A stretch of 14,189 nt of DNA from Bdellovibrionota bacterium FG-2. Lineage in GTDB: Bacteria > Bdellovibrionota > UBA1018. The stretch covers positions 1 to 14,189 of the forward strand of contig JBBCAV010000328.1 of NCBI GenBank assembly GCA_051382305.1, given 5' to 3'. This document shows positions 3-14,189 of the stretch, piece after piece. The position numbers and the translations under genes are program-made. Under the pieces are notes generated by a model that searched no databases, had not been told where the DNA came from, and saw only the letters and a program-made list of their open reading frames with translations. Position 1 is the first letter of the stretch, and every line of letters starts with the position of its first letter.

Positions 3-2141
3 TTTAAAGAAGATGACCCTCAGACTCTTAACCCACCGCTGTCGGAGGCTTGTAAGACCTTCCGGGCCGTTAGTGAACTAGGGACTCTTTTTCGTAAGGT
101 CGGAAAGCCTTTTTTTCTGCGGTTTTGTGAGCTCAGCTCAGAGTCAATCACCAGTGCTAAAGACTCTTTGAAGCAACTTTTAAATTTGCAAGTCAAAGCA
201 AGCCAACATCGTACATTGATTGATCAGCTTTACTCAACACTGAATGCCCACTTTGAAATTCCACTATTTCTAGATCGTAATGCCCAAAATAACCTGACTT
301 ACCAGGCGCTGATTCACACCCTAAAAGACTTAGATGCACTTGAGAGAGTTGATTTACAATTCGAGAAAGTATCGAAAGCCATTCGGTCAACACCTTCAAA
401 GGAATTTCTAGAACACTTGCTTAAGATTGAGGTGCCATGGAGTAGCTACTGCAAAGCTATCATAATCCGTGGTTGGGTTGACGATCTCCGTGCTCAAACC
501 CCAGGGCTACGTGCATTTGAAAGTAGTGGTTTCGATAAGAAAGTTAAAAAATTTAGGAAGTTAGAGACCCTGCATCGGGAGTCGGCCCGTGAAACCGTCA
601 ATAATACCCTCTTCAGGCGGTGGAACGGAGGACATGGTGAGCACGTGGGATTAGAGCTTTTAAAGGGAGAGGCCAATAAACAGCGACGAGTACTATCTCC
701 GAGAGAAATTATGGAAGTCGGCGCGCTTACTGCCATGATGAAGCTTAAGCCCTGTTGGTTAATGAGCCCGCTTAGTATCTCCCAGATGCTTCCCCTACAG
801 CCTGGCTTATTTGACATTATTATATTCGACGAGGCATCCCAGGTCCGAGTCGAGGATGCGGTTCCTTCGATTTATCGATGCAATTCGATGGTAGTTGTGG
901 GCGATCAAAAACAAATGCCGCCCACAAATTATTTTCAGGGCACAGAGATTCCAGAGGATGACGAAGACGAGGATAATGAACCGGCTACAAGTATCTTGGA
1001 TTTGGCTTCCCGAGTCTACCCATCGGAAATGCTTTTGTGGCATTATCGGAGTCGTTCGGAAGGTCTGATTGCCTTCTCTAATCGCGCATTCTATGAAGGT
1101 AGACTGATTGCTGTTCCTAGCCCTCATTGCATCACAGAATCCGATGCACTTTGTTTTCACAGAGTCGAAGAGGCGTATTTTAATACGAAGGACGGGAACA
1201 TCCAGGAAGCCGAGGGAGTTGTGGAAACAGCTTATCGACTTCTTAAAGAGCATCCAGACAAATCTTTAGGTGTGATCGCAATGGGGATACCCCAGATGGT
1301 TGCGATCTCGCAAGTTATTGAATGCCGAGAAGCTGTGGACAATGCCTTCCGAAATACTATTGAGGCAGCGCGAAATTTCAAAGACGGCGAAGCAGAGGCC
1401 GGGTTTTTTGTGAAAAATCTTGAAAATGTTCAGGGGGATGAGCGTGATATAATCCTGATCTCTGTTGGTTACGCTCCTCCAAAAAAGGGAAAGAACCTGA
1501 GACGTAGTTTTGGGCCACTATCGAAGGAGGGCGGAGGGAGACGCCTTAATGTAGCCATTACTCGTGCCAAACAGCAGGTACATGTATTTTGTTCGTTTGA
1601 TCCCCAAGAGATTCCAACGGACGAGGCAGCCTTTTCGAAGAATTCAGATTCAGTTTTCTTCGTGCGTTATTTGAAATATGTGCAAGCTTTCTCTGAGAAG
1701 AGGACTTCGGATGCACTTTTGATTTTAGATTCTTTTGGGCCGCGGCGGAGTGGGGCTAGTGGCGGGAGAGTTCGTAAGGGGGATGGTTTCACTAAAGAGG
1801 TACAGCGTCGTCTTGAAGACCTGGGATATAAAGTTTCGGTTGATATTGGCACCTCAGGTTTCTTTATCGATCTTGCGATTCATAATCCCGACATCCCCGC
1901 GAACTTCATTCTCGGGATAGAGTGTGATGGCGCTTTGTTTCACTCGACTCCATATGCACGCGATCGGGATAAGATACGAAATGATCTGCTCGTGAGCCGG
2001 GGATGGCGTATTGAGCGAATTTGGTCGCAAGATTGGTCACGTGATTGGAAGGCGGAGATCGCGCGGCTAGACAATATTTTGAAGTTTATCGTAAAGGAAG
2101 TTCGGATCGTGCCTTCAACGGAAGATAAGATGGCTATTTAA
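3..2141 (+). CDS. Superfamily 1 (UPF1/DNA2-like, AAA_11/AAA_12) helicase with C-terminal Vsr/restriction-endonuclease-like domain; 5'-partial
   Basis: The frame is open from position 3 (FKEDDPQ...), so the TTG at 168 is not the true start. Motifs: LMSPLSISQ, FDIIIFDEASQ (Walker B), VGDQKQMPP, HYRSR, NVQGDERD, RRLNVAITRAK. C-terminal FIDLAI...GIECDG...RDKIR...RGWRIERIWSQDW. Walker A lies outside the window. Confidence 0.92.
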   Translation, partial: FKEDDPQTLNPPLSEACKTFRAVSELGTLFRKVGKPFFLRFCELSSESITSAKDSLKQLLNLQVKASQHRTLIDQLYSTLNAHFEIPLFLDRNAQNNLTYQALIHTLKDLDALERVDLQFEKVSKAIRSTPSKEFLEHLLKIEVPWSSYCKAIIIRGWVDDLRAQTPGLRAFESSGFDKKVKKFRKLETLHRESARETVNNTLFRRWNGGHGEHVGLELLKGEANKQRRVLSPREIMEVGALTAMMKLKPCWLMSPLSISQMLPLQPGLFDIIIFDEASQVRVEDAVPSIYRCNSMVVVGDQKQMPPTNYFQGTEIPEDDEDEDNEPATSILDLASRVYPSEMLLWHYRSRSEGLIAFSNRAFYEGRLIAVPSPHCITESDALCFHRVEEAYFNTKDGNIQEAEGVVETAYRLLKEHPDKSLGVIAMGIPQMVAISQVIECREAVDNAFRNTIEAARNFKDGEAEAGFFVKNLENVQGDERDIILISVGYAPPKKGKNLRRSFGPLSKEGGGRRLNVAITRAKQQVHVFCSFDPQEIPTDEAAFSKNSDSVFFVRYLKYVQAFSEKRTSDALLILDSFGPRRSGASGGRVRKGDGFTKEVQRRLEDLGYKVSVDIGTSGFFIDLAIHNPDIPANFILGIECDGALFHSTPYARDRDKIRNDLLVSRGWRIERIWSQDWSRDWKAEIARLDNILKFIVKEVRIVPSTEDKMAI

Positions 2142-2522: not shown

Positions 2523-3968
2523 TCACCCCAAGCACTGCTTCGGAAAAATCCTAACCCCACGCTCCTGCGCTTCGTCTTGAAGTTTCGGATCAAATGTAAG
2601 TCTTCCCGAAAGCAAGATCGCATTCTGAGACAGTTTCTCAGCAACGATTAGGTCGATCCCGTTGCGGTCACCGCCGTAGTCATAATCAACTAACACCAGG
2701 GGATCAATAGCGGTGCGAAGTCCGGTTAAGAAGGCTTCTTCTGTATCAAAAACTTGAACCGAGTGGTTTGGAAACGCCGATTTCAATTTTTCTCCCATCG
2801 TCAAATCATCGTCGAGTGCAATGACGGTTTGGGCGTGAGTCCTTGTGATATCGAAAAACCACAGGGGGGTATCGACGAGGGGAAGATGAATTCGAATTGT
2901 TGTGCCATTTGTCAGCTTTTGAATATCCAAGTCACCCTTTGCCTGCGCAACCAGTGCACGGACGGTCTGAAGTCCTAGTCCTGTCCCGCCTGGCTTGGTA
3001 GTCATTTCTTCAGACGCCATGACTTTGGTTAGTACCTCTTTGGAAAATCCAAGCCCAGAATCTCGAATGACGATTTCACAGATTCTGTTTTGAACTTTTG
3101 CGGTGAGATAGACTCTTTTGGCTCCGGCCTCTGATGCGTCGATAGCGTTGGTCAGAAGGTTTGAGAATATTCTACACAAGTCCGAGAAGCTTAGGGCTGC
3201 AAAAGCCCGCAACGCAGGTTTCGGGACATCGCAAACAATCGTGACGCCACGAGCCCGTGCTTTTGCTTCTTCTTCTTCAAAGATAAATTGCAAAGCACCT
3301 CCGACAGTCGCAACCTCGGGTGAGGGAGTCTTGGTTTCTGGCTCTTTTGCTTTTGCGATAGCATCTTCTGTGTACTTTTTAAGACGGAGATCGATCATGG
3401 CGCGAAGGCGGCCGACGACCTGCCTTATCCTGTCCTTGTTTGCAGCGGGCAGAGTTTCTAAGTCCGTATTGAGCATGATAATCACGGAGGCAAGTGGGGC
3501 TTTTAGATCGTGCATGATTCTATGTACGAGGGCATAAACGGCAGATTCGGTTCTCAAGCGCTGAGTTTCTTGGACGGCGAGGTTGCGCTCCTCATATAGT
3601 TCTTGGTTCTTTTGGGTGAGAAGTGCAACGATCTCCAAAATTTCCCATGCCATTGTCCCCTGAAGAGCGGGACGCGCTCCAAGTTCAATCGAGGTGTATT
3701 TTACCATCTGCGTGTGAATGCGCCTTAGGCTTTGGCAAAGGGCAATTGAAAATACATTGGCAATTGCCCAAATTACCGCGAACGTAAGGACATATGCCCC
3801 AGCGTTTTGAACGGTCGCAACTTTTAGAAACGATAGGAGCCAAGACGTACCAATTGCAAATGCGAGGAGTGAGCAAAGGGTTATCGTGGCAGTGATAACG
3901 CGCAAACTATGAATAGGCGCCGGTGCTTGCACAAGGCGGCGCTGTTCAGGGCTTCGCGAGGACTCCAT
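2523..3968 (-). CDS. Histidine kinase portion: 2 TM, HisKA, HATPase_c, C-terminal receiver-like domain
   Basis: H-box IMHDLKAPL, N-box NLLTNAIDA, G1 DSGLGF, G2 GTGLGL. Receiver motifs VIALDDD...VDYDYGGDRNGIDL...LLSG...FPK. Confidence 0.9.
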   Translation of the reverse strand: MESSRSPEQRRLVQAPAPIHSLRVITATITLCSLLAFAIGTSWLLSFLKVATVQNAGAYVLTFAVIWAIANVFSIALCQSLRRIHTQMVKYTSIELGARPALQGTMAWEILEIVALLTQKNQELYEERNLAVQETQRLRTESAVYALVHRIMHDLKAPLASVIIMLNTDLETLPAANKDRIRQVVGRLRAMIDLRLKKYTEDAIAKAKEPETKTPSPEVATVGGALQFIFEEEEAKARARGVTIVCDVPKPALRAFAALSFSDLCRIFSNLLTNAIDASEAGAKRVYLTAKVQNRICEIVIRDSGLGFSKEVLTKVMASEEMTTKPGGTGLGLQTVRALVAQAKGDLDIQKLTNGTTIRIHLPLVDTPLWFFDITRTHAQTVIALDDDLTMGEKLKSAFPNHSVQVFDTEEAFLTGLRTAIDPLVLVDYDYGGDRNGIDLIVAEKLSQNAILLSGRLTFDPKLQDEAQERGVRIFPKQCLG

Positions 3969-4004
3969 GAGTGCGACCGCGGTGATCGCGGCGAAAGAAA
4001 ACTC

Positions 4005-4742
4005 CTAGCCATACTCAAATACCGAAAGGCCAGATATTGGGCCGCCAATGTCTTGGTATCTCAGCACGAAATCGCTTGCAGCGACCCCCGTGAAGAAAAA
4101 CCAAAGTAGAAACTCCGTGAACCCCAAAGTCCTAACGCTTGCGATGAGGATGCCGCCAACCATAACGGCTTGCCCAAGCGCATAGAGGATCGCGGTTGTG
4201 TAAATGAGGATCGGCCTTCTTTGTGGATCTTTGAAAAACGGTAATAGAATGAGCTCATAGGAGCAAACAAAGTAAAGCCCCGCGATGAGTGCAATCGCCA
4301 AAACGACCCACTTGCGAGATTTTGCTTCAAGTTGATCGGTCGCTCTCAAGACAACTGCGTAGCCCGATAAGAGGGCAAACGCCGCATAAGGCAGTTCATG
4401 AAATAACGGAACCAGGCCCCTTGGGGGTGGAAGCCGTAAGATGTAGGCAGTTATCCCATAGGCAAGATCGGCGACTCCCACAAAGAGGAGAGACCACTGT
4501 AGGCTTTGCGTCCAGCGGGACTTGGTGTCTTGCCCTGGAATATGCCCGGAAAAAGCCGCGCGTAACAAATAGAAGGAGAGCATTGAGGTAATGAACTCGT
4601 GAATGGCCGAAGCCATACCTGTGACAGTCACCGACAGTCCGTAACGTGTCGCGGCCCAATTATAGAAAAAGGGAATGAGGCAATTTAGGATTGCCAGAGA
4701 GATAAAGGCAGGAAGTTTTAGAAAAGTTTTTGAGGTAATCAT
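4005..4742 (-). CDS. Multi-pass membrane sensor domain (N-terminal part of the split kinase)
   Basis: About 7 hydrophobic segments, plus an eighth that spans the TAG. In frame with the kinase. Confidence 0.75.
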   Translation of the reverse strand: MITSKTFLKLPAFISLAILNCLIPFFYNWAATRYGLSVTVTGMASAIHEFITSMLSFYLLRAAFSGHIPGQDTKSRWTQSLQWSLLFVGVADLAYGITAYILRLPPPRGLVPLFHELPYAAFALLSGYAVVLRATDQLEAKSRKWVVLAIALIAGLYFVCSYELILLPFFKDPQRRPILIYTTAILYALGQAVMVGGILIASVRTLGFTEFLLWFFFTGVAASDFVLRYQDIGGPISGLSVFEYG

Positions 4743-5335
4743 TTTCGTTTCCGAATTCTGAGCCATCCGCGCGGCATTTTAAATGCGGGATTGATAAAAG
4801 CCATACTCTCGAAGGCCCGTTCAATCGAAATCCAATAGGGGGCGGGGACTTCAAAGTCGACATCGCAAATAAGGATTTCTCCGGCTTCCGAATCATACCC
4901 TGAGATCGGTGAGAAATGGGGGGAGCCTTGTCCCTGCAATGGCTGAGAGAGGGCATGATCCTGAGTGAAGTTCATGACAAGTCCAAGGTCCTCGCGAGAG
5001 GCGGCCTCTTCGAGGTCTGACTTAAAGAGCGCAATATTCTCAGGAAACGCTCGGCGAAGTTGAACTTCAAGTTCATGGGAGTAGACCATTTCGGTAGTGA
5101 AATGGGCTTCATGTAATGCCATCCCGCGTTTGGTAGTAAATTGTTCGACGGGAACCCAGCGTGAGAGTTCGGGTGCAAGCCAAGCGCTTTCAGGTTTCTT
5201 TTCGCAGCCTAGCGCTTGTGCAACAAGTGAGATTGAGGCGGGGCCGCAGGTGCAGGGGTGCTCTTGCCTGTGGCCCGAATGGTAGAGCTCAAGAATGCGA
5301 TTGAATGTGGTGTGCTTGGGAGAGGGGAGTTTCAT
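4739..5335 (-). CDS. Phytochelatin synthase-like papain-fold cysteine peptidase
   Basis: QEHPCTCGPAS (oxyanion Gln, catalytic Cys), PHFSPISGYD (His), ILICDVD (Asp), then PYW...M...RGW as in the PCS family. Start placed at ATG 5335 (SD GAGGAG, ATGA overlap with the upstream stop) rather than GTG 5341. Confidence 0.85.
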   Translation of the reverse strand: MKLPSPKHTTFNRILELYHSGHRQEHPCTCGPASISLVAQALGCEKKPESAWLAPELSRWVPVEQFTTKRGMALHEAHFTTEMVYSHELEVQLRRAFPENIALFKSDLEEAASREDLGLVMNFTQDHALSQPLQGQGSPHFSPISGYDSEAGEILICDVDFEVPAPYWISIERAFESMAFINPAFKMPRGWLRIRKRK

Positions 5336-6825
5336 AAACACTCCTCGGACTCGAAAGCGGATTCAGGCTGAGTCGCCGTTTGAGTAGTTAGTCCAGGCGA
5401 GGTGTTGCCATAGGTTTGTGATTTTTTGTGTAGTCCAAGCTCCATCATTTTTCGGAACAAGGTGGTGCGACCGATTCCTAGGCTTGTCGCAGTCAATCCT
5501 AGGTTGTTATCAAAAAGATTTAGGACAGCGAGCAGATAGTTGCGTTCGCAGTTTACCAAAAACTTTTTGAAAGCGGCTGGATTAACTTCATCAATTGCGG
5601 CGGGGATTCCTAAGGCTCCTTTGCCGGAGGCCAGGACATTATTGCCCCTGGTTTCGACATCGCGTCGCTCAATGAGGGTGGAACTACGGCGCCCAGTTAA
5701 AATCGTCGCTCTTTCAAGTGTGTTTCTTAGGTCGCGTACATTGCCAGGCCACGGCTGTTTGGTAATGAAACTAAGCGCGCTGTCAGTTAATGAATAATTG
5801 CCCTTGTCCATGCTGGCCAGGAGGAATTGCACAAGATCTGGGATGTCTTCGATGTGTTTTCGAAGAGGGACCGTATCGATTTCGTAGACGTTTAAGCGGT
5901 AATATAGGTCATCGCGAAATTTGCCCTGAGAGACGAGCGTCGTAAGGGATTTGTTTGCTGCCGCAATTATTCGCACATTTACCTGAATCGTTTTAGTGCT
6001 GCCAAGTGGCGTGACTTCTCCGCATTGAAGAACGCGAAGGAGTTTGCTTTGCGCGTTCAACGGGAGGTCACTAATTTCATCCAAAAATAAGTCCCCTCCA
6101 TCAGCGAGGACAAATTTTCCAACCTGATCTTGAGTGGCCCCTGAAAATGCGCCACGGACATGTCCGAAGAGTTCACTTTCAACTAGATTCTCGGGAAGGG
6201 CAGCACAGTTAAGGCCATGGAAGGGGCGCGAAGGATCATCTTCAACAGCGTGCAAGCGACGCGCGATGAGCTCTTTGCCTGTTCCAGTTTCGCCAGAAAT
6301 CAGTACAGGTGTCAGCGATCCTTTGAGGCTTTGCACAGTGGCACGAAGTTCCGCCATGGCGGGGGAGCGACCTATAATCTCATATTGAAAGGCTTGTTTA
6401 AATCGCGCGATGAGTTGCTCTGACTTGCGCTCAATTGAAGCGCGACTCAATGCCATTGGAATACGCACAAGGAGATCGGGCACGATGTTTTCACCCTTGT
6501 GGAGATAATCACTTGCGCCAGCGGCGAGACATTTGTGGACGAGAGTCAAGTTGCTGTCGGCGGTCAAGATGATCACGACAGTTTGGGGTGTCGCAGCTTT
6601 GATTTCTGGAATCAGATCTAAGCCGTTTCCATCGGGGAGATTTTTGTCGAGCAGAACAATGTCGAATGTCGTTCGCGAAAGCAGGGTGCGAGCCTGCGCG
6701 ATTGTCGCAGCCTGTGCGATGTCATTGTAGACTCCCAAAAGGGTGACGACCTGTTCACGAAAACATCCGTCATCCTCCAAGAGTAGAATTCTGAGGTCTT
6801 GTTTGATTTGATTTCGGCCCTTCAT
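5332..6825 (-). CDS. Sigma54-dependent NtrC/AtoC-family response regulator (REC-AAA+-Fis HTH)
   Basis: LLEDD and LLDKNLPDGNG receiver; GETGTGKE; ESELFGHVRGAFSGA; FLDEI; RDDLYYRL; WPGNVR; C-terminal HTH TATSLGIGRTTLFRKM. SD AAGGAG upstream. Confidence 0.96.
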   Translation of the reverse strand: MKGRNQIKQDLRILLLEDDGCFREQVVTLLGVYNDIAQAATIAQARTLLSRTTFDIVLLDKNLPDGNGLDLIPEIKAATPQTVVIILTADSNLTLVHKCLAAGASDYLHKGENIVPDLLVRIPMALSRASIERKSEQLIARFKQAFQYEIIGRSPAMAELRATVQSLKGSLTPVLISGETGTGKELIARRLHAVEDDPSRPFHGLNCAALPENLVESELFGHVRGAFSGATQDQVGKFVLADGGDLFLDEISDLPLNAQSKLLRVLQCGEVTPLGSTKTIQVNVRIIAAANKSLTTLVSQGKFRDDLYYRLNVYEIDTVPLRKHIEDIPDLVQFLLASMDKGNYSLTDSALSFITKQPWPGNVRDLRNTLERATILTGRRSSTLIERRDVETRGNNVLASGKGALGIPAAIDEVNPAAFKKFLVNCERNYLLAVLNLFDNNLGLTATSLGIGRTTLFRKMMELGLHKKSQTYGNTSPGLTTQTATQPESAFESEECL

Positions 6826-6867
6826 CTGTAAGCTCCTTCACTTCTGCTCGTATTGCCAGAGCACAAG

Positions 6868-6883
6868 AGCAAGTGATGGGCCA
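6868..6883 (-). promoter_or_regulatory. Sigma54 -24/-12 promoter of the NtrC-like operon
   Basis: Minus strand reads TGGCCCATCACTTGCT (GG-N10-GC, one mismatch to TGGCAC-N5-TTGCW), about 40 nt upstream of the ATG. Confidence 0.75.
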
Positions 6884-6996
6884 GTTGCGGCATTCTTGGC
6901 CGCGGGTGGGGGAGGTTGTCGTAGTGGGCTAATTTAAAAGGGGAATTCTAATTCCGCTGAAGGGCGGTCTTTTTTCTGGAGCTGGAGGGTCGAAGG

Positions 6997-7044
6997 AATT
7001 GATGGGAATAGCCTACAACAGGTTGTGGGTATTTCCCATCAGTT
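6997..7044. repeat. Long imperfect inverted repeat just downstream of the small peptide gene
   Basis: Arms AATTGATGGGAATAGCCTACAAC (6997-7019) and GTTGTGGGTATTTCCCATCAGTT (7022-7044); 18 of 23 positions are complementary. Confidence 0.7.
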
Positions 7045-7058
7045 GGCATTGGTTTCGC

Positions 7059-7307
7059 CTAGCTTCCCCACTTTTCAGTTACGGGTTGAGTCTTGTAAAA
7101 AATCTCTTCCAGAGTCATATGTTTGAGATCAAGCTCTTGGATCTGAATTTTTTCAAATGAGTTTCTTAGGTCATTTCCCTCAGAATCCAGGCTTTTGTCT
7201 AATTCGATTTTCCTAGTTTTTGCAGCCGATAAGTCGTCGGCGCGTGCTATTGCCCCGGAACTTAATGAAAAAGCTGCCGCCAATAAAACCAAAATTCTTT
7301 TCTTCAC
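7059..7307 (-). CDS. Small secreted peptide (82 aa, Sec signal); candidate signal/RiPP precursor
   Basis: GTG at 7307 with SD GGAGGG (7314-7319) 6 nt upstream. MKKRILVLLAAAFSLSSGAIARA is a typical signal peptide with an A-x-A site. The mature part ends LEEIFYKTQPVTEKWGS. The function is inference. Confidence 0.8.
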   Translation of the reverse strand: MKKRILVLLAAAFSLSSGAIARADDLSAAKTRKIELDKSLDSEGNDLRNSFEKIQIQELDLKHMTLEEIFYKTQPVTEKWGS

Positions 7308-7357
7308 AAAACACCCTCCATTTTTTGATACCCAAAGATAACGCAACGCGTATATCA

Positions 7358-7387
7358 TTGCTTTGGCACTGACACAAGCTCTATAAT
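7358..7387 (+). promoter_or_regulatory. Putative sigma70 promoter of the SBP-YcaO-kinase operon
   Basis: TTGCTT-N18-TATAAT, with the GTG start 6 nt after the -10 box. Confidence 0.5.
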
Positions 7388-7393
7388 TGGCAA

Positions 7394-8974
7394 GTGTCGA
7401 AACATAAAAAACGCATCGTGGGCGCCCTCCTTTTCATGGGTGTCGCGACTTCAGTACTTTTCTTGGGAATTACAAGGAGATCTCAATTGATTAACCTTAA
7501 GTCCAACCCACCAACTCGCCCCTCTTGTATCGCTGTCGGGATCCCTCAGATCCACCCCACTTACGACCCCAGCGCGCTCTCAAACACGGACAAAGTCTTT
7601 GTCGTTAATTCCCTGCTTGGAAAACTACTGTCGATAGGGCCAAGTAACGAAGTCTATTCTGCCATCATCAACCGTTGGAGTGTAGATCAAGACAAAAAGG
7701 TTTTTGATCTGTTCCTAAATCCTAACGCGCGTTTTTCAGATGGCACATCCATTCGCGTTGAAGATATTGTCGCCACCTTAAAACGCCTTATCCTCTTAGA
7801 AGGGGTGCATATTTCCTTAAGAGGCAAAATTCTTGGTGCAGATCAGCTAAACAAGATTACGGAGACAATCCCAGGAATTGAAACCCTATCCGCCAATCAA
7901 ATCAGAATTCGTCTGGCAAGCCCCGAGCCCGATTTTTTGTATTGGCTTGGGTTCCTTGAGCTTGGCGTATTAAGAGAAAGTGATGCCGCCCTACCTGCTG
8001 GAAAAATCACATTCAAAGTAACGAGCGGCGCCTATTTTCTGGAAAAACAAACCGCCACTGAGCTCACACTCAAAGCGAACCCCTATTTTTATGAAAAAAA
8101 AGGGGACGCCTCTGCTTGTATTACGGTTAAACAGTATTCAACACCGGAAAATGCTCTCAAAGCACTTTACGCCGATGAAATCCAAGTACTCGAATATGGC
8201 GCGGTTCTGAGTCGAGAATTTGGAAGCCTTTTAGACTCCCATCGCTTTGAGGTGACCCTCAGCAACTCCAAAGCGCTGCTCTATCTCATTTTGAATCCAA
8301 GGCGGGACCTTTTTCGCGACAAGCCCCAGAGACTTTGGTTAGCTCAAAAACTCAGGGAAGCTATGTTAATTCCCTACAAAGAAGGATCGATCTTTCTCCC
8401 CGCCGATCAGTTTTTGACTGATGATCATGTGGGTTTTTTGGACGCAACAGACATCAAAGCCATTCAGGGGGAACTCTCAACCCTAAGCCAACCGCCGAAT
8501 CAAAGCAAAATCAGAGTACTTTACCCGGAGGTTTTTGGAATGGAATATGCCGACCTTCTTAAAAACCAGATAAAAATCGCTGCGCACCTTGATACCGAGT
8601 TTCTAATGGCCACCGATCAAAGCGCCCGCCAGCGAATCGAAAGCGATGACTATGATGCGACCGTGATGATCACCGGGATGGGCGAGAAGGCGACCAACAT
8701 TCTTCTTTCCTATCACTTTCAGCCTCTTCTTAAGTTCTACAGGTTTCCTGCTCTCGACCTTCAAAGCCTTTTGGAAAAAAGTGAAGCAACGGGAGATCCA
8801 AATGAGCGGCGAAATTATTATCGCGAACTCTCGAAATCCATTCTTCGCCAAGGGTACATTTTGCCCGTTTCTGTCTACAAATGGCCGACTTTTCATCGAA
8901 GTGATCTGTTTTTTCAAAACCACCATGACTACATCTACGACACGGAACTATGGAATCTCTCCTGGAAGCCGTAA
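7394..8974 (+). CDS. ABC-type family 5 (OppA/DppA-like) extracytoplasmic solute-binding protein, N-terminally anchored, orphan
   Basis: N-terminal basic + hydrophobic segment; YDP, RWSVDQDKKVFDLFLNPNARFSDGTSIRVEDIVATL, SGAYFL, LKANPYF, DPNERRNYYRELSKSIL...ILPV. No permease or ATPase genes in the window. Confidence 0.9.
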   Translation: MSKHKKRIVGALLFMGVATSVLFLGITRRSQLINLKSNPPTRPSCIAVGIPQIHPTYDPSALSNTDKVFVVNSLLGKLLSIGPSNEVYSAIINRWSVDQDKKVFDLFLNPNARFSDGTSIRVEDIVATLKRLILLEGVHISLRGKILGADQLNKITETIPGIETLSANQIRIRLASPEPDFLYWLGFLELGVLRESDAALPAGKITFKVTSGAYFLEKQTATELTLKANPYFYEKKGDASACITVKQYSTPENALKALYADEIQVLEYGAVLSREFGSLLDSHRFEVTLSNSKALLYLILNPRRDLFRDKPQRLWLAQKLREAMLIPYKEGSIFLPADQFLTDDHVGFLDATDIKAIQGELSTLSQPPNQSKIRVLYPEVFGMEYADLLKNQIKIAAHLDTEFLMATDQSARQRIESDDYDATVMITGMGEKATNILLSYHFQPLLKFYRFPALDLQSLLEKSEATGDPNERRNYYRELSKSILRQGYILPVSVYKWPTFHRSDLFFQNHHDYIYDTELWNLSWKP

Positions 8975-10161
8975 GTTCGAAGCTCATAGACGAGCAAGAG
9001 TACCTGAGGGTTGCGTCCCATGTTTTAGGAGCTTGGGATTTTTCATCGTTCATTGGTAACCGGATTTTTCCCAACCAAAGCAGAATCAAGCTCGCAGATT
9101 TTTTTGCCCATCTTTCTAGAGATTTTGATGCAGAGTTTGGTGCGTTTTCGATAAAGAACACAAATCCATTTTTCGCAGAGCAGACAACAGTTTCTGCTGA
9201 ACTTCGATTGCCTGCGAGGTTTCCTGAAAACCAACGTTTACTCTTAGGTTCAGGCGAGCGAGCGGAAAAAGAAGAATCAAAATATATTGCGCTTGTCGAA
9301 CTCTTGGAGAGACTTTGTTTTAAACTGAGTGCAGAAAGAGGGTTGAGGCATTGCATTGACCTAAAGACCGGTAAAACTTGCCATCGGTCTTATCACCCAG
9401 AAAACACTTCCGGCATGGCGATCCATACCGATCCAAAGCTCTCCCTGGAAAATGCGATTTTCGAACTGATTGAACGAGACGCGTATATGTGCCATTGGCT
9501 TACCCAAATAAGGCCGATACCCATCGTACTTCGTGAACATCGGGTTTTCGATCAAGTTCAAGCACGAATGAGCGAGCTGGGCCTTGAGTTTTCCGCTTTT
9601 CTCCTTAAGGGGCTGTGCGGAGTTCCTGTAGTCCTAGTTTCTTCATATGATCGGCAATTTCGCAACGATAGCACCTCTTTTTGCCACGGGATTAGCGCTG
9701 CTGGCTCCATAGAGATCGCGTTTGATAAAGCGGTGGGCGAACTTGTTCGGTTCAACAACCACTGCGCCAACCTTGGAGGTATTGCTCGGCAGGTAAAGTC
9801 TGAAATTTCAGAGCCCATGGGCCGATTCTATTACTACCTTGATCCGAATAGACTTGGAGACTTGTCGGTCTTTATGTCTGATGGCACTCGGCCCACGATA
9901 GTCGACAAAAAAAGTTGGCACAAAACTTCTCACAAGACAAAAGATCTGATTAAGCAGATGACTCGAATGGGACCTTTGTATCTTTACCCCGCTCGACAAT
10001 TCGCCATCGTCGCGGATACTTTTTTTCCATTTCTTGTCGATTGTGATTTTGTCCAAAAGCCAAACTACGGAGATAAACTTGTGATTAATCAATCAAGAAT
10101 TGAACAATTCAGTTCCCAAGGGTCGCAGGGACTCTGCATGAAACCGCACCCACTCCCATGA
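8950..10161 (+). CDS. YcaO-family ATP-dependent peptide backbone-modifying enzyme (stand-alone)
   Basis: SKYIALVELLER, NTSGMA...AIFELIERDA, GVPVVLV, GISAA...FDKAVGE, and the Pro-rich C-terminus KPHPLP. Confidence 0.9.
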   Translation: MESLLEAVSSKLIDEQEYLRVASHVLGAWDFSSFIGNRIFPNQSRIKLADFFAHLSRDFDAEFGAFSIKNTNPFFAEQTTVSAELRLPARFPENQRLLLGSGERAEKEESKYIALVELLERLCFKLSAERGLRHCIDLKTGKTCHRSYHPENTSGMAIHTDPKLSLENAIFELIERDAYMCHWLTQIRPIPIVLREHRVFDQVQARMSELGLEFSAFLLKGLCGVPVVLVSSYDRQFRNDSTSFCHGISAAGSIEIAFDKAVGELVRFNNHCANLGGIARQVKSEISEPMGRFYYYLDPNRLGDLSVFMSDGTRPTIVDKKSWHKTSHKTKDLIKQMTRMGPLYLYPARQFAIVADTFFPFLVDCDFVQKPNYGDKLVINQSRIEQFSSQGSQGLCMKPHPLP

Positions 10162-11957
10162 AGATTCGTGAATTGAACCCCATTTACGTTTCCTCAGTTG
10201 CCTTATTCTTATTGGGAAACGGGGCTATGCTTGTCGGACAAAAAATTCATTTACGGGGAATGGATCGCCAAGTTGAGGTCATGACCAGGCGCCACATTCT
10301 TTCGGGAGATTTTAACGTCGCTAAAGAAGCGATGACCGCACTGAAACCTACATTCATTGAGAGTTTTCAGATTGTAGACGCGAGCAGATCAAAAGACCTG
10401 ACCTGCGCACGAGGAATGAGGGCGGTTCCGATGTATTTTGACTCCGACCGCATTATTCCAAAAGCTTCTGTTTGCTATACCCCTGACCGTAAAGTTTTTT
10501 TTGAAGTCTTATTTTTGGTGAATGTGCTCATTGTGCTGGCCGCAGGATCAATGATTTTGCTCCAACGGCGATACTTGAAACTTGTTCAGAATTCACAGCG
10601 CGATTTTTTCAGTCGGTTTTTGGGGATGATGGAACACTATATTCGAAGCGACTTCTCAAAAGGTTCCGAACCTCAATTAGAGTTATCAAAGGATTCAGGT
10701 GAATTTGAAAAGAAGGTGAAAAACCTGATTCAACTTTATATTACACAGAAGTCAAAAATGGATTTGCAAGTCTCACTCTCGAATCTTGCCTCCCAAGTCG
10801 CACATGATATTCGCTCACCACTTACCAGTCTCAACGTGGTCATTGAAAAAGTGCAAGCCCATGGCGTCCTAGACGAGCAAAGCCGCACCATGGTGCGAAC
10901 GGCGGTAGGACGTATTCGCGACATCGCCAACAACCTGCTGTCTCAAAATCGCAGTCTCAGCGTCGGCGCAACAGACTTGGAACCATTGCCATCCACACCC
11001 GATTTAACAACCAAACCTACTTCTCCCACATCAAATGAAACCGCATCTCCAACACTTTTATGTACCCTCATCGACTTGATTGCCTCAGAAAAGCGCGCGC
11101 AATTTTCTAAACAAATTGAAGACGGAAAGCTAGAGATCCTTACCGATCTGTCAAGCGGATATGGGCTTTTTGCGAAAATCCAGCCCACCGAATTTTCACG
11201 TCTTCTCTCCAATCTCATCAATAATGCAGTTGAAGCGATGTCTGGGGTGGGGAGGGTGCAAATTACTCTTAAACCATCGCCCATAAGCGAGGCCAAAATA
11301 GAGCTGGAGATTTCGGACAATGGCAAAGGGATTCCACCCGAATTGATTCCCTTGCTCGGCACCAAGGGCAACACCTTTGGCAAAAATGGTGGGTCGGGTC
11401 TCGGACTGTATCATGCCAAAACAAGTGTTGAGTCATGGGATGGCGAATTTTTGATTGAGTCCTCTCAAGAAGCGCGTTTTACGAGAACCAAGCTTCGCCT
11501 TCCAAAGCTTGACTCAACAGAGATTCCTAAATGGTTTCCTGAACTACTTTTGATCAACGCCCAAATGACGATTGTCGTTTTAGATGATGACCCCACCATT
11601 CACGACGTTTGGAACGAGAGGTTTCGCGACCTTTTGACAGCTAATCATAAAATTGACCTTTTGCATTTTCACAGCCCTGAGGAAATCCTTGCCTGGTATC
11701 GAAAAACCTTGGGTCCAGAAGGGGACGCACTCTATCTTTGCGATTATGAAATGCGGGGAAGCAAACATTCCGGAATCGATGTCATTCAAATGCTCGACAT
11801 TGCGAAAAAAAGCATCCTAGTGACGAGCCACACCAGTACGGCCACTCATGGCGACGCTCCTCTGATAAGCGAGCGATGCGAAAAACTTGGAATCAGGTTT
11901 CTGCCAAAAGCGCTGGCTGCCTTAATTCCTATTAAAGTGGCACTCCCCAGCTCCTGA
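10158..11957 (+). CDS. Hybrid sensor histidine kinase (2 TM, small periplasmic domain, HisKA, HATPase_c, receiver-like domain)
   Basis: QVAHDIRSPL, NLINNAVEAM, DNGKGIP, GSGLGL. Receiver motifs IVVLDDD...LCDYEM...GIDV...LVTS...LPK. ATGA overlap with the YcaO stop. Confidence 0.94.
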   Translation: MKIRELNPIYVSSVALFLLGNGAMLVGQKIHLRGMDRQVEVMTRRHILSGDFNVAKEAMTALKPTFIESFQIVDASRSKDLTCARGMRAVPMYFDSDRIIPKASVCYTPDRKVFFEVLFLVNVLIVLAAGSMILLQRRYLKLVQNSQRDFFSRFLGMMEHYIRSDFSKGSEPQLELSKDSGEFEKKVKNLIQLYITQKSKMDLQVSLSNLASQVAHDIRSPLTSLNVVIEKVQAHGVLDEQSRTMVRTAVGRIRDIANNLLSQNRSLSVGATDLEPLPSTPDLTTKPTSPTSNETASPTLLCTLIDLIASEKRAQFSKQIEDGKLEILTDLSSGYGLFAKIQPTEFSRLLSNLINNAVEAMSGVGRVQITLKPSPISEAKIELEISDNGKGIPPELIPLLGTKGNTFGKNGGSGLGLYHAKTSVESWDGEFLIESSQEARFTRTKLRLPKLDSTEIPKWFPELLLINAQMTIVVLDDDPTIHDVWNERFRDLLTANHKIDLLHFHSPEEILAWYRKTLGPEGDALYLCDYEMRGSKHSGIDVIQMLDIAKKSILVTSHTSTATHGDAPLISERCEKLGIRFLPKALAALIPIKVALPSS

Positions 11958-11964
11958 TGCGTGA

Positions 11965-12315
11965 TTACTGATTCATCTTAGGATGAAGCGGCTTTGCATT
12001 GTTTTCGTGGTCGAATTTCGCAAGCTCACTGGCCATCTTGGCTTGAATATAGCCGGAGTAAGTCCCATCACCGTGACGAATGATTTCCTTCAGGAGTTCT
12101 ACCGAGGGTTGAGTGCGACCGTTACGCTCTTTTTCATACATGAGTTGAGTTAAAGTCGTCGCCGTAATGTCATTCTTCGTTTTGTTATCAATAACCCGAA
12201 CATCTCGCCCCGCTTTGAGCGTCTTGTCGATCTCGTCGAGGGTGACGTAGACGGACTCTTCGGTGTCGTAGAGCTTGCGGTTCTGATAGCGTTTGATGAT
12301 TTTGGCTTCGGTCAT
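11965..12315 (-). CDS. PhaR-like (PHB/PHA accumulation regulator N-terminal) DNA-binding protein
   Basis: IIKRYQNRKLYDTEESVYVTLDEI...VRVIDNKTKNDITATTLTQL...LLKEII matches the family pattern. ATGA overlap with the upstream gene. Confidence 0.9.
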   Translation of the reverse strand: MTEAKIIKRYQNRKLYDTEESVYVTLDEIDKTLKAGRDVRVIDNKTKNDITATTLTQLMYEKERNGRTQPSVELLKEIIRHGDGTYSGYIQAKMASELAKFDHENNAKPLHPKMNQ

Positions 12316-12773
12316 AAATTCCCCCGTTGGCGCCCTTTATCCACCAAGAGACGTCGCTCCGCAACCCAAGAGTAGGGCGCGGTGCGTAATTTGTTTGGGC
12401 TGGTTGATCCCTTTCGTTCCCAGACGACTCGCAGCCCTTGATTTAGGTCACTCGTTTCACTTAAAATAAGCTCCCGACCTTTGAGGGTAATAGAACGCCT
12501 CTGAGTGGTTCCCAATCTCTTTGCCAAATTAGAAACCTCCACCTGATGGCAAACAAACGGGCCATCAATACTAAACGTACCGGCATAGGCAATCGTGTGA
12601 TCGCGTAACTCATTGTCGATAAGTGCCTGACCTTGAATGATCACGGACATAGAGAGATCTGGGAGATAAAGTAGTATTCCACTGAAAGTTTCAGGGTAAA
12701 GCGAATGAGCCTTCAAATGCCACGTTCCAATGAGATCTTCAGGTTCGAATGGAGGGGACGGATTTTGGGTCAT
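12312..12773 (-). CDS. Lipocalin-like domain protein
   Basis: LIGTWHL, GILLY...MSV, IAYAGTFSI, HQVEVS...GTTQRR, VWER: the pattern of bacterial Lipocalin_5-type proteins. Confidence 0.8.
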   Translation of the reverse strand: MTQNPSPPFEPEDLIGTWHLKAHSLYPETFSGILLYLPDLSMSVIIQGQALIDNELRDHTIAYAGTFSIDGPFVCHQVEVSNLAKRLGTTQRRSITLKGRELILSETSDLNQGLRVVWERKGSTSPNKLRTAPYSWVAERRLLVDKGRQRGNL

Positions 12774-12789
12774 ACAATTATGCGAAGGA

Positions 12790-13290
12790 TTATTTCTTGC
12801 TACCAGGGCCTAAGAATTTTTCTAAGGCTGGCTTGACCTTGCTGTTGTGGAAGTCTATGCATTTAGTGTTTTCAGGGTCATTGTCGAGGTATTTTGAGCA
12901 TTCCTTTATTCCTGGTAAGGTAATTTTGAGACACTCTTCCATAAAGTGCACCGCTACGAGTGCTGCTTCATCGGTGAGATGTGCAAGTTTGCTTTTTCGT
13001 TTCAATTGGTAGTCGCTGAACGAATCCGAAGAGGATCGCGCTTCCATTTTTTCGTTAAGGATTAGGGTCGCCTTTTCTTCCAACTCCTTCGGGAAGGCGT
13101 TCATTTTTTGTCCTGAACTTTTGGCCGCTTCTTTAGCGGTGTTGATTCTGATTTGCTCAAGCAGCCCCCTAAACGCAAAACCTTTGCAAACAGTCTCAGC
13201 AGCTGCTTTAAGCTCTGCTTCCTCAGCAAATGCGGCCTGTCCCATCAGGAATATCAACCCAAGTCCTGCGAAAATGGAATATTTCTTCAT
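12790..13290 (-). CDS. Secreted hypothetical protein, helical, 4 Cys
   Basis: Signal peptide MKKYSIFAGLGLIFLMGQAAFA; charged K/E/A-rich mature region; no family recognised. Confidence 0.75.
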   Translation of the reverse strand: MKKYSIFAGLGLIFLMGQAAFAEEAELKAAAETVCKGFAFRGLLEQIRINTAKEAAKSSGQKMNAFPKELEEKATLILNEKMEARSSSDSFSDYQLKRKSKLAHLTDEAALVAVHFMEECLKITLPGIKECSKYLDNDPENTKCIDFHNSKVKPALEKFLGPGSKK

Positions 13291-13295
13291 AACAA

Positions 13296-13324
13296 ACTAT
13301 AGGATCCTCAAGCGACAAAATCAA
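13296..13324 (-). promoter_or_regulatory. Putative sigma70 promoter for the 166-aa gene
   Basis: Minus strand TTGATT-N17-TATAGT, then 5 nt to the ATG. Confidence 0.5.
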
Positions 13325-13372
13325 TAGGGCAACGAAAGGTGGCTTAGGTTTTCTCCCAGACCTAGAACCTTC

Positions 13373-13414
13373 TTTTCCATTTTTGAAACATTCATGTTCC
13401 GAAAGTGGAACATG
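13373..13414. promoter_or_regulatory. Tandem palindromic sites (candidate enhancer/UAS) upstream of the sigma54 promoter
   Basis: Perfect CATGTTCC-N6-GGAACATG (13393-13414) and degenerate TTTTCC-N6-GAAACA (13373-13390), offset by 22 bp. Confidence 0.65.
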
Positions 13415-13445
13415 CTCTCCGCCGAGATTTTCCTGAATCGTAATA

Positions 13446-13458
13446 TTTCAACAACTTA
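13446..13458 (+). promoter_or_regulatory. IHF-like binding site
   Basis: TTTCAACAACTTA, one mismatch to WATCAANNNNTTR, between the palindromes and the -24 element. Confidence 0.5.
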
Positions 13459-13473
13459 CGTGTAACCAAGCTC

Positions 13474-13489
13474 TGGCACCGACATTGCT
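13474..13489 (+). promoter_or_regulatory. Sigma54 -24/-12 promoter
   Basis: TGGCAC-CGACA-TTGCT, a perfect match to TGGCAC-N5-TTGCW. Confidence 0.88.
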
Positions 13490-13511
13490 TTAGTGGTCCC
13501 CAATAACAAAT

Positions 13512-13529
13512 TGTTCCGAAGACGGAACA
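13512..13529. promoter_or_regulatory. Third copy of the TGTTCC-N6-GGAACA palindrome, in the 5' UTR
   Basis: TGTTCCGAAGACGGAACA versus the upstream TGTTCCGAAAGTGGAACA. Confidence 0.65.
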
Positions 13530-13544
13530 GAAAAGGGGATCTAT

Positions 13545-13763
13545 ATGATTAAGACGCTAAAGAGTTGGTTGGGCAATCTGGTTAGTACAAATGAGGGTTT
13601 TTCCCTACACAAGACGGGCAGAAGAATGGTGGCGCGGCCCAAGCGCGCTGTTCGCGATATCGCCTTGGACATCAACGGCGAGAGGATACTCACACTGCCT
13701 GTATCCTATTTCTCGACCTTAGAAGAGGGACGTGCGCGCGCCTATTTCCCGAGGGGGCTCTGA
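13545..13763 (+). CDS. Small basic hypothetical protein (72 aa)
   Basis: SD-like AAGGGGA upstream; first ORF after the sigma54 promoter; the stop is 1 nt before the next ATG. Confidence 0.65.
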   Translation: MIKTLKSWLGNLVSTNEGFSLHKTGRRMVARPKRAVRDIALDINGERILTLPVSYFSTLEEGRARAYFPRGL

Positions 13764-13764
13764 T

Positions 13765-14189
13765 ATGAACTCCCTAAAAGACAAATCGATTCCGGTGATG
13801 GCGATCCTAGTTGAAGAGGAGCTTCGGATTCGAAAGCTGTGGCAACACTTCTTTCACAAAAACGGACTGCTCTTATTGGTGTTCGACTCCCCAGAGCAGT
13901 TCTTGAAGCATTACAAGCCAAATGGCCGCCCAATTGAGCTCTTTTTTGATCAAGACTTTGGTAATCGTCGCGGCGAAGGGGTGAAGCTTGCTCGCCTAGT
14001 TGTCTCGTGGCCGGGGCGTGTTGCGACCAATCTTGTAACTTCATACGAACCCCAGAATTTTGCCTCCGAATTTCGCGAAGGCATTTTGGATGATGTCTTG
14101 TCTAAGTTCCCCGAAGAGATCTTCGGTCCGAACTATTTTCTCGATCATTGCCTTGATGCTGAACCTCCCGCGAGCTTATTTGGTTTCAG
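13765..14189 (+). CDS. CheY-like receiver-domain protein; 3'-partial
   Basis: Translated by hand: MNSLKDKSIPVMAILVEEELRIRKLWQHFF...VFDSPEQFL...LFFDQDFGNRRGEGVKLA...LVTSY...VLSKFP. It has the acidic pocket, phospho-Asp, Thr and Lys. SD GAGGGGG upstream; open to the window end. Confidence 0.8.
   Translation, partial: MNSLKDKSIPVMAILVEEELRIRKLWQHFFHKNGLLLLVFDSPEQFLKHYKPNGRPIELFFDQDFGNRRGEGVKLARLVVSWPGRVATNLVTSYEPQNFASEFREGILDDVLSKFPEEIFGPNYFLDHCLDAEPPASLFGF

Follow-up and report, generated by a model that had tools for sequence, protein, structure and literature searches.

What does a YcaO enzyme do in the middle of an operon that otherwise encodes a receptor? Enzymes of this family are known from the production of antibiotic-type peptides and from a few protein modifications. 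In a contig of Bdellovibrionota bacterium FG-2 (JBBCAV010000328.1 of assembly GCA_051382305.1; 14,189 nucleotides, analysed in its entirety and referred to here as the window), a stand-alone YcaO gene lies between the genes of a family-5 solute-binding protein (SBP) and a sensor histidine kinase. A first-pass annotation had flagged the span 2523–11957, with nine sizeable genes within or adjoining it, as one system that makes, matures and senses a modified peptide. We find that the window holds two neighbouring signalling units, a right-hand one (7059–11957) that includes YcaO and a left-hand one (2523–6883). Judging from sequence comparison, the right-hand unit belongs to a family of cassettes that many Bdellovibrionota carry, and represents an uncommon version of it with a long YcaO. 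The reading that we favour, with a probability of about 45%, is that YcaO modifies a small Sec-targeted protein prior to its export, and that what is exported is then sensed by the orphan SBP together with the hybrid kinase.

Organization of the right-hand unit

Two gene sets diverge from an 86-bp intergenic region (7308–7393), as originally annotated. On the plus strand, the SBP gene (7394–8974; 526 aa; PF00496, 78.5 bits) is followed by the YcaO gene (8950–10161; 403 aa; PF02624, 67.3 bits against a cut-off of 25.7) and by the gene of a hybrid sensor histidine kinase (10158–11957; 599 aa; HisKA, HATPase_c and a C-terminal part modelled as a receiver); the domain matches and the overlaps of 25 nt (SBP and YcaO) and 4 nt (YcaO and kinase) agree with the gene order and overlapping genes described initially. 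On the minus strand, an open reading frame (ORF) at 7059–7307 encodes an 82-aa exported protein with a Sec-type signal peptide, which is a candidate ligand of the receptor and/or substrate of YcaO. This small ORF starts with GTG, 7–8 nt downstream of the Shine-Dalgarno sequence GGAGG, and its length of 82 aa is matched by the public gene call; a contig piece of a lake-water metagenome covers most of it without a frameshift inside, the lone 1-nt deletion, at position 7023, being outside the ORF. The product has a single N-terminal hydrophobic segment, with predicted cleavage between ARA and DD, which would leave an acidic mature protein of 59 aa that lacks Cys and ends in TQPVTEKWGS; Ser and Thr are merely scattered along the product, which is not rich in either. 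A simple scan for sigma70-type sites found none at 6700–7500, including the 86-bp region. A sigma54 promoter within the 86-bp region was considered as well, given the sequence TGGCAC at 7364–7369, and was rejected by eye because the GC is one base too distant.

The SBP contains one transmembrane (TM) segment, at residues 8–26, that is, an N-terminal membrane anchor or signal, and no ABC permease or ATPase partner is encoded nearby. Among proteins of solved structure, those most closely related to it bind ligands of the peptide type (SapA, OppA, MppA and DppE, and also PrgZ and MbnE), and, by these matches, it is an orphan of the peptide-binding type. The kinase contains two TM segments that flank a periplasmic loop of about 90 aa, followed by HisKA and HATPase_c. 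Its C-terminal 130 residues have no Pfam match; in the structural model, in which residues 470–599 have a predicted local distance difference test score (pLDDT) of 83.5, all listed Foldseek matches of this tail are receiver domains, so the protein looks like a hybrid kinase with a receiver fold. The genome encodes rpoN and six proteins with Hpt-domain matches, the latter all outside the window.

The YcaO protein itself apparently retains an intact active-site signature, and, by its sequence and model, looks catalytically competent. Eight residues are invariant in an alignment of 16 sequences (E117, E120, R121, E172, E175, R176, D177 and E264), and the acidic motifs line up with the ...ExxER... 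motifs in the M. jannaschii YcaO with bound ATP. Among solved chains, the best sequence match is 6pe3, the McrA-type YcaO of M. jannaschii (E 1.1e-15), and the best Foldseek matches of the model (pLDDT 87; predicted template modelling score, pTM, 0.89) are LynD, the M. kandleri and M. jannaschii YcaOs, MusD, McbD and E. coli YcaO (E 2e-14 to 2e-9 for the azoline formers among them). The N-terminal 60 residues are modelled as four helices and not as a winged helix. The protein ends in ...KPHPLP, a PxPxP motif of which PHPLP is common to the closest relative; H400 and P401 are nearly invariant across the 16 sequences, some of which end in HPFA, HPIA or HPLA. A PxPxP C-terminus is canonical for azoline-forming YcaOs according to a preprint (bioRxiv 10.1101/2025.07.11.664356), and, as a sequence feature, it suggests chemistry of the azoline kind. 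A search of the genome, which is 85% complete, did not find TfuA (PF07812); the same search gave a match in a control genome.

Recurrence of the cassette in the long-YcaO clade

The first-pass annotation had proposed to look in other genomes for a recurring neighbourhood of SBP, kinase and divergent small signal-peptide ORF, and this neighbourhood was found at all three loci of the long-YcaO clade that could be seen in context. The clade is present in 3 of 401 genomes sampled from the phylum; a search of 127 genomes of the class at E≤1e-10 retrieved four, one of them with a partial match only. Genomes are denoted here by labels, G000 being that of the window, G001 one of the same genus, and G018, G078, G118, G122, G123 and G124 relatives. 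The order SBP, YcaO, kinase is kept in G018 and G078, again with overlapping SBP and YcaO genes, and SBP identity to these two orthologues is 35–36%. At each of the three loci, an ORF with a signal peptide diverges beside the SBP gene (82–98 aa overall; 97–98 aa in G018 and G078) and is the sole intergenic ORF of such kind. The genes outside the four-gene cassette differ among all three loci. After cleavage, the small proteins comprise 59–73 aa, with no conserved Cys, Ser or Thr motif; those of G018 and G078 are clearly similar to each other, and that of the window cannot be aligned with either. Upstream of the cassette in the Bacteriovorax metagenome-assembled genome (MAG; locus L009), an AbiEi/AbiEii toxin-antitoxin pair (6620–7955) comes directly after the small ORF; the end of the kinase gene there is overlapped by a gene for a protein with transglutaminase-like and tetratricopeptide repeat (TPR) parts (12890–14134).

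The closest full-length relatives of the YcaO come from MAGs labelled 'uncultured Bacteriovorax sp.' and 'Oligoflexia bacterium'. In a word-indexed protein collection the query was its own sole match, and a two-sequence profile retrieved 12 representative clusters at E≤1e-30 from 1.84 billion proteins; nine metagenomic members of the clade are denoted P0007–P0015. No second cassette gene was detected in 80 metagenome loci by tblastn with the window proteins. One relative of the outer branch of the long-YcaO clade (P0019 and P0021), at locus L019, adjoins an ORF with a radical-SAM-like Cys motif (read by eye), with no SBP or kinase match in its surroundings, so not every member of the clade need be linked to a receptor.

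In a quick IQ-TREE phylogeny of 56 rows, the clade of the window and the shorter, SBP-linked YcaO-like proteins described below fall together, apart from 14 longer YcaOs (Shimodaira-Hasegawa-like approximate likelihood ratio test, SH-aLRT, 96), in a tree that is rooted by a chosen outgroup and has many long branches. The long-YcaO clade, with 15 rows, has an SH-aLRT of 96 as well. Fragments (P0007, P0017 and P0020), near-duplicates (L112 and L115) and one truncated sequence (L123) were left out of the tree.

Related short-YcaO cassettes

Weak YcaO matches in related genomes led to shorter YcaO-like genes, of about 320–370 aa, which a five-sequence profile (E≤1e-8) detects in 95 of the 401 genomes sampled from the phylum. 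At 24 of the 30 best-scoring loci, an SBP_5 gene lies within 1.5 kb of the YcaO-like gene, and at two of the other six it is slightly farther away. The usual order is YcaO-like gene, a gap of 150–380 bp and SBP gene. Among 21 gaps downstream of the YcaO-like gene (the next gene being SBP in 19 cases), 16 contain a small ORF with a signal-like N-terminus; four have no ORF of at least 25 aa, and one has nothing convincing. An [ST]C pair stands near the C-terminus in 10 of the 16 small ORFs, as in ...GSGATCEK and ...GGGGTCDF, and six longer small proteins (96–118 aa) can be aligned with one another and have in common, close to the end, an invariant Pro with [ST][CST] after it. A resemblance between the TQPVTEKWGS end of the window protein and TQPTCWGH of one short-YcaO cassette was dropped when a profile comparison did not uphold it. 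The short peptides of loci L105–L131 have a leader of the form MS[VFL]xKK, then a hydrophobic stretch, S-x-[ST]-[RK]-x-L and a Gly/Ser-rich tail; instead of being a plain signal peptide, this leader may serve for recognition by an enzyme or for a special kind of cleavage.

All four short-YcaO loci that were read further downstream, one of them in the genome of the window, continue with a kinase and then a sigma54 regulator. A sigma54-type -24/-12 element (at most two mismatches, with GG and GC fixed) stands directly upstream of the YcaO-like gene at 13 of 20 loci, two of the 20 having no upstream DNA; by the same criteria, there are only 21 sites on both strands of 146,762 nt. A sigma54 promoter at the start of the operon and a sigma54 regulator at its end fit a positive feedback loop. 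The genome of the window carries a complete cassette of this type on another contig (C133; locus L153, 3600–9400), which comprises the sigma54 promoter, the YcaO-like gene, a 116-aa signal-peptide ORF ending in DHPTSI, SBP, kinase and sigma54 regulator, and the same-genus genome G001 also has a short-YcaO cassette (L115). These observations support a circuit in which a modified peptide is made and sensed for the cassette family as a whole.

A proposed self-made signal and its alternatives

In the scheme that we favour, the cytoplasmic, ATP-dependent, stand-alone YcaO would modify the backbone of a small protein destined for Sec (here, the product of the divergent 82-aa ORF) before export; the small protein would then be exported and its signal peptide removed; the membrane-anchored orphan SBP would bind the mature small protein; and the loaded SBP would switch the two-TM hybrid kinase, whence phosphate could reach a response regulator by way of an Hpt protein encoded elsewhere. 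The target of YcaO and its chemistry, the binding of the small protein by the SBP, and all phosphotransfer routes are what we infer here. The case for making and sensing is good for the short-YcaO cassettes and only positional for the window, where the small ORF lacks Cys and detectable relatives; the claim that this ORF is the YcaO substrate is accordingly the weaker one, and its position is what suggests it. A prediction of the complex of the SBP (residues 36–526) with the mature small protein scored 0.00 against a mark of 0.32, from a three-row alignment, and weighs neither way.

Several results count against this scheme. A word search of 5.8 billion proteins found no homologue of the small ORF; compared with the two sister-locus small ORFs, it gives nothing in BLASTP at E≤100 and aligns poorly; and in hhalign, its probabilities of relationship with the longer of the small proteins from short-YcaO cassettes are 0.7% and 0.2%. 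It shows no detectable homology to the small ORFs of the other cassettes, does not end in [ST]C and contains no Cys. No sigma54-type -24/-12 element precedes the SBP operon or the small ORF in the window or at the two sister loci, so the feedback loop of the short-YcaO cassettes is not evident here, and the right-hand unit contains no response regulator or Hpt gene. The enzyme scores far below the cut-offs of both TIGR03604 (SagD family; 65.7 bits against 219.25) and TIGR03266 (McrA thioamidation; 21.5 against 365), and neither an E1-like/Ocin-ThiF partner nor a fused RiPP recognition element (RRE; RiPP, peptide that is ribosomally synthesized and then modified post-translationally) occurs among the window ORFs of at least 95 aa; most azoline-forming YcaOs require an E1-like or RRE partner. 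The genomic context of the long-YcaO clade is seen at three loci only. The figure of 24 in 30 for the short-YcaO cassettes overstates their independence, because these best-scoring loci include several close kin and the profile was built in part from SBP-linked genes.

The small ORF may instead be an unmodified periplasmic accessory of the kinase, of which CpxP at cpxRA is a comparable example, with YcaO modifying a folded signalling protein, namely the kinase, the SBP prior to export or an unlinked protein. We regard this as somewhat unlikely, even though the translational coupling of the YcaO gene between the SBP and kinase genes at all three loci suggests that the enzyme is produced along with those proteins and less so with the small ORF, small proteins in the long-YcaO clade share no conserved Cys, Ser or Thr motif, and the best solved sequence match of the enzyme is the McrA-type YcaO. 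There is a stand-alone precedent, too, in E. coli YcaO, which is reported to recognise a folded protein and to thioamidate uL16 (PMC13063428). On the other side are the PxPxP end, linked to azoline formers, the failure to find TfuA in the genome, and the related short-YcaO cassettes, which encode short, Gly-rich, Cys-ended peptides beside the enzyme; no candidate site was identified on the kinase or the SBP. Less likely still, in our judgement, is that there is no self-made signal at all: the SBP and the kinase would respond to a ligand from outside, such as peptides derived from prey or from cell walls, and YcaO and the small ORF would be passengers or outputs under shared regulation. A predatory life style is typical of Bdellovibrionota, the solved SBPs most closely related bind peptides from the environment (SapA, OppA, DppE and MppA, the last a binder of murein tripeptide), and the window cassette lacks the sigma54 feedback promoter, all of which is compatible with such a sensor; it would leave unexplained why YcaO sits between receptor genes at 3 of 3 loci, why a YcaO-like gene accompanies SBP at 24 of 30 related loci and why a small secreted ORF recurs.

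The reading that finds the least room in the data, and which we hold to be very improbable, is an antimicrobial RiPP cluster for a linear azoline peptide, with the two-component genes merely regulating production. It could draw on the PxPxP end of YcaO and on the existence of RiPP clusters with a regulatory kinase and regulator pair, one of which is described in Bacteroidales (PMC10352776). The first-pass annotation had remarked on the absence of antibiotic-type accessory genes, and this is borne out: no exporter, dehydrogenase, E1-like/ThiF or protease domain was found in the window ORFs of the above size, which leaves such a cluster without exporter, immunity gene, dehydrogenase, leader protease and E1-like partner. 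Moreover, the candidate peptide of the window is Sec-targeted, devoid of Cys and not rich in Ser or Thr, and the SBP has no transporter partner. Returning to the self-made signal, the original proposal that the locus makes, matures and senses a modified peptide draws support from the recurrence of the cassette and from the wider family, and none from similarity of the putative substrate of the window to the small ORFs of other loci; a link to the left arm and maturation by its papain-like enzyme, considered next, are not supported.

The left-hand unit is a distinct operon

The annotated succession of secreted peptide, sigma54 activator, papain-like peptidase and ~10-TM kinase names the genes on the minus strand correctly, but the small ORF does not form one unit with the others and the kinase frame is not open. 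The small ORF is separated from the sigma54 regulator gene by 233 bp that contain a hairpin (-20.6 kcal/mol, z -2.85) and a sigma54-type -24/-12 element, TGGCCCATCACTTGCT (6868–6883, minus strand, one mismatch), 43 nt upstream of the ATG of the regulator, so the minus strand comprises at least two transcription units. Across the window, sigma54-type matches with up to three mismatches are not enriched (66 observed, 58.5 expected). The first gene of the operon (5332–6825, minus strand) encodes an NtrC-type sigma54-dependent response regulator of 497 aa with REC, Sigma54_activat and HTH_8 domains, and is followed by the genes of a phytochelatin-synthase-like, papain-fold protein (4739–5341, minus strand; 200 aa), which overlaps both neighbours, and a polytopic hybrid histidine kinase (2523–4766, minus strand).

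The phytochelatin-synthase-like protein matches PF05023 with 77.9 bits (cut-off 24.9; profile positions 29–210), and its triad, which, by eye, we take to follow the consensus, presumably consists of Cys in TCGPAS, His in HFSPI and Asp in CDVD. It has neither a signal peptide nor a TM segment and is therefore predicted to be cytoplasmic; nothing points to a role for it in the maturation of an exported peptide. The kinase gene is interrupted by a TAG at 4005–4007, which splits a single frame into a membrane part (4005–4766; 253 aa) and a two-TM kinase part (2523–3968; 481 aa). Its orthologues are one fused ORF, of 584 aa in G118 and more than 608 aa in G018, and G018 has Trp (TGG) at the position of the TAG; near-identical contigs of run X1, probably the source sample, share the letters of the window there. 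The TAG may be a genuine nonsense codon or may have arisen in assembly, and the ~10-TM kinase is a real gene type that is interrupted in this assembly. An ATG 12 codons downstream of the TAG could restart translation. In an Atlas look-up, to be taken as a lead only, the membrane part scored 0.92–0.93 with unnamed clusters and 0.81–0.83 with MASE/7TM families. The tail of this kinase aligns with that of the right-hand kinase, and, on this sequence likeness, it looks like a hybrid kinase as well.

Orthologues of the phytochelatin-synthase-like protein, with 44–61% identity, occur in G018, G118, G122, G123 and G124. G118 has the whole operon, with a sigma54-type element (two mismatches) upstream, on a 9.4-kb contig without a YcaO or SBP match; in G018, the phytochelatin-synthase-like and kinase genes are on a short contig other than that of the YcaO cassette; and at the two other long-YcaO loci (G018 and G078), no such operon adjoins the cassette. 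This operon is conserved apart from YcaO, and its conservation therefore ties neither the papain-like enzyme nor the polytopic kinase to the YcaO cassette. The view of the window as one system is thus upheld in part: the right arm is a recurring cassette, and the left arm an operon that is conserved on its own and elsewhere has no YcaO next to it. The left unit is a separate operon, sigma54-promoted and probably self-regulating, whose regulator may or may not be shared with the right unit. The adjacency of the two could matter, given that the right-hand cassette has no regulator, that the short-YcaO cassettes followed to their end close with a sigma54 regulator, and that the genome encodes rpoN and the six Hpt-domain proteins.

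Flanking genes and habitat

A perfect sigma54 consensus, TGGCACCGACATTGCT, is found in an intergenic region at 13474–13489 (plus strand), upstream of a 3'-open ORF (13732–14187, plus strand), the product of which weakly matches a receiver domain and can be aligned with the unusual receiver tails of both kinases; this ORF is a possible target of the sigma54 regulator of the window. At the other end (3–2141, plus strand) lies a 5'-open gene whose product joins a superfamily-1 helicase (AAA_11/AAA_12) to a restriction-endonuclease-like domain, MTES_1575. Three genes follow the right-hand kinase on the minus strand (11965–13290), encoding a PhaR-like polyhydroxybutyrate regulator (PF07879), a lipocalin-like protein (PF13924) and a 166-aa protein of no clear family with a hydrophobic, signal-like N-terminus. 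The helicase and lipocalin-like genes were not found in G001, G018 or G078, and, as neither of these flanking genes turned up in the same-genus genome, the locus may be variable DNA. Contig pieces that are 90–99% alike are present in two lake-water metagenomes of different years (X2 and X3).

Comparison with known systems

No description of a YcaO inside a binding-protein/kinase operon was found in the open full-text literature, in keeping with the initial remark that no described system with this architecture was known. If the favoured scheme is true, it would mean peptide-based cell-to-cell or autocrine signalling in Gram-negative bacteria, with export by Sec and a transporter-less SBP as co-receptor, and would give the large group of YcaOs that lack a partner a concrete substrate. 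The window contributes the long-YcaO clade, a divergent arrangement, the lack of a feedback promoter and, next to the cassette, the operon of sigma54 regulator, phytochelatin-synthase-like protein and polytopic kinase, itself a second undescribed operon type.

The window YcaO shares its fold, acidic ATP/Mg motifs and PxPxP C-terminus with the azoline-forming cyclodehydratases (McbD, LynD/TruD and MusD), but differs from these systems in that it has no E1-like/RRE partner or fusion, dehydrogenase, exporter or Cys-rich core in its neighbourhood, lies inside a receptor operon and scores far under the TIGR03604 cut-off. In being a single-domain protein of similar size without an RRE, it resembles E. 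coli YcaO and the methanogen McrA YcaO (PDB 6pe3/6cib), from which it is set apart by the PxPxP end, the low TIGR03266 score, a genome in which TfuA was not found and a gene context of signalling instead of ribosome or methanogenesis.

In the quorum-sensing relay of Vibrio, the hybrid kinases LuxN, LuxPQ, with a periplasmic binding protein, and CqsS feed LuxU and then LuxO. The window is similar in that several hybrid kinases, one with a periplasmic binding protein, are encoded beside a sigma54-dependent response regulator; it differs in having no Hpt gene and two separately conserved arms, and its signal would be a ribosomal peptide instead of a small molecule. The sigma54 regulator scores 269.7 with the LuxO equivalog, under the cut-off of 800. 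By analogy, a YcaO-made backbone heterocycle or thioamide on a Sec-exported protein could serve as a self-made signal read by the orphan SBP and the hybrid kinase, with this channel and that of the polytopic kinase and phytochelatin-synthase-like enzyme converging via Hpt on one sigma54 regulator, as in Vibrio on LuxO, an extension that we consider decidedly improbable. Among the peptide pheromones of Gram-positive bacteria, the autoinducing peptide (AIP) of Agr is sensed by AgrC, and PrgZ is a pheromone-binding SBP. The likeness here would be a modified, exported ribosomal peptide sensed by a membrane kinase or a family-5 SBP, with feedback in the short-YcaO cassettes; the differences would be the modifier (a YcaO), export by Sec, an SBP that feeds a kinase and not an importer, and the Gram-negative host.

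The closest counterparts are the short-YcaO cassettes, which comprise the same four parts as the right-hand unit: YcaO, small secreted ORF, SBP and kinase. The window YcaO belongs to its own clade and is about 80 aa longer at the N-terminus than the short YcaO-like proteins; the genes of its unit run SBP, YcaO, kinase, with the small ORF diverging from them, whereas the short cassettes run from the YcaO-like gene through the small ORF to SBP; and, unlike these, the window unit has no [ST]C end, sigma54 promoter or regulator of its own. Because its wiring differs in these respects, the window can help to separate the essential parts of the cassette from the optional ones.

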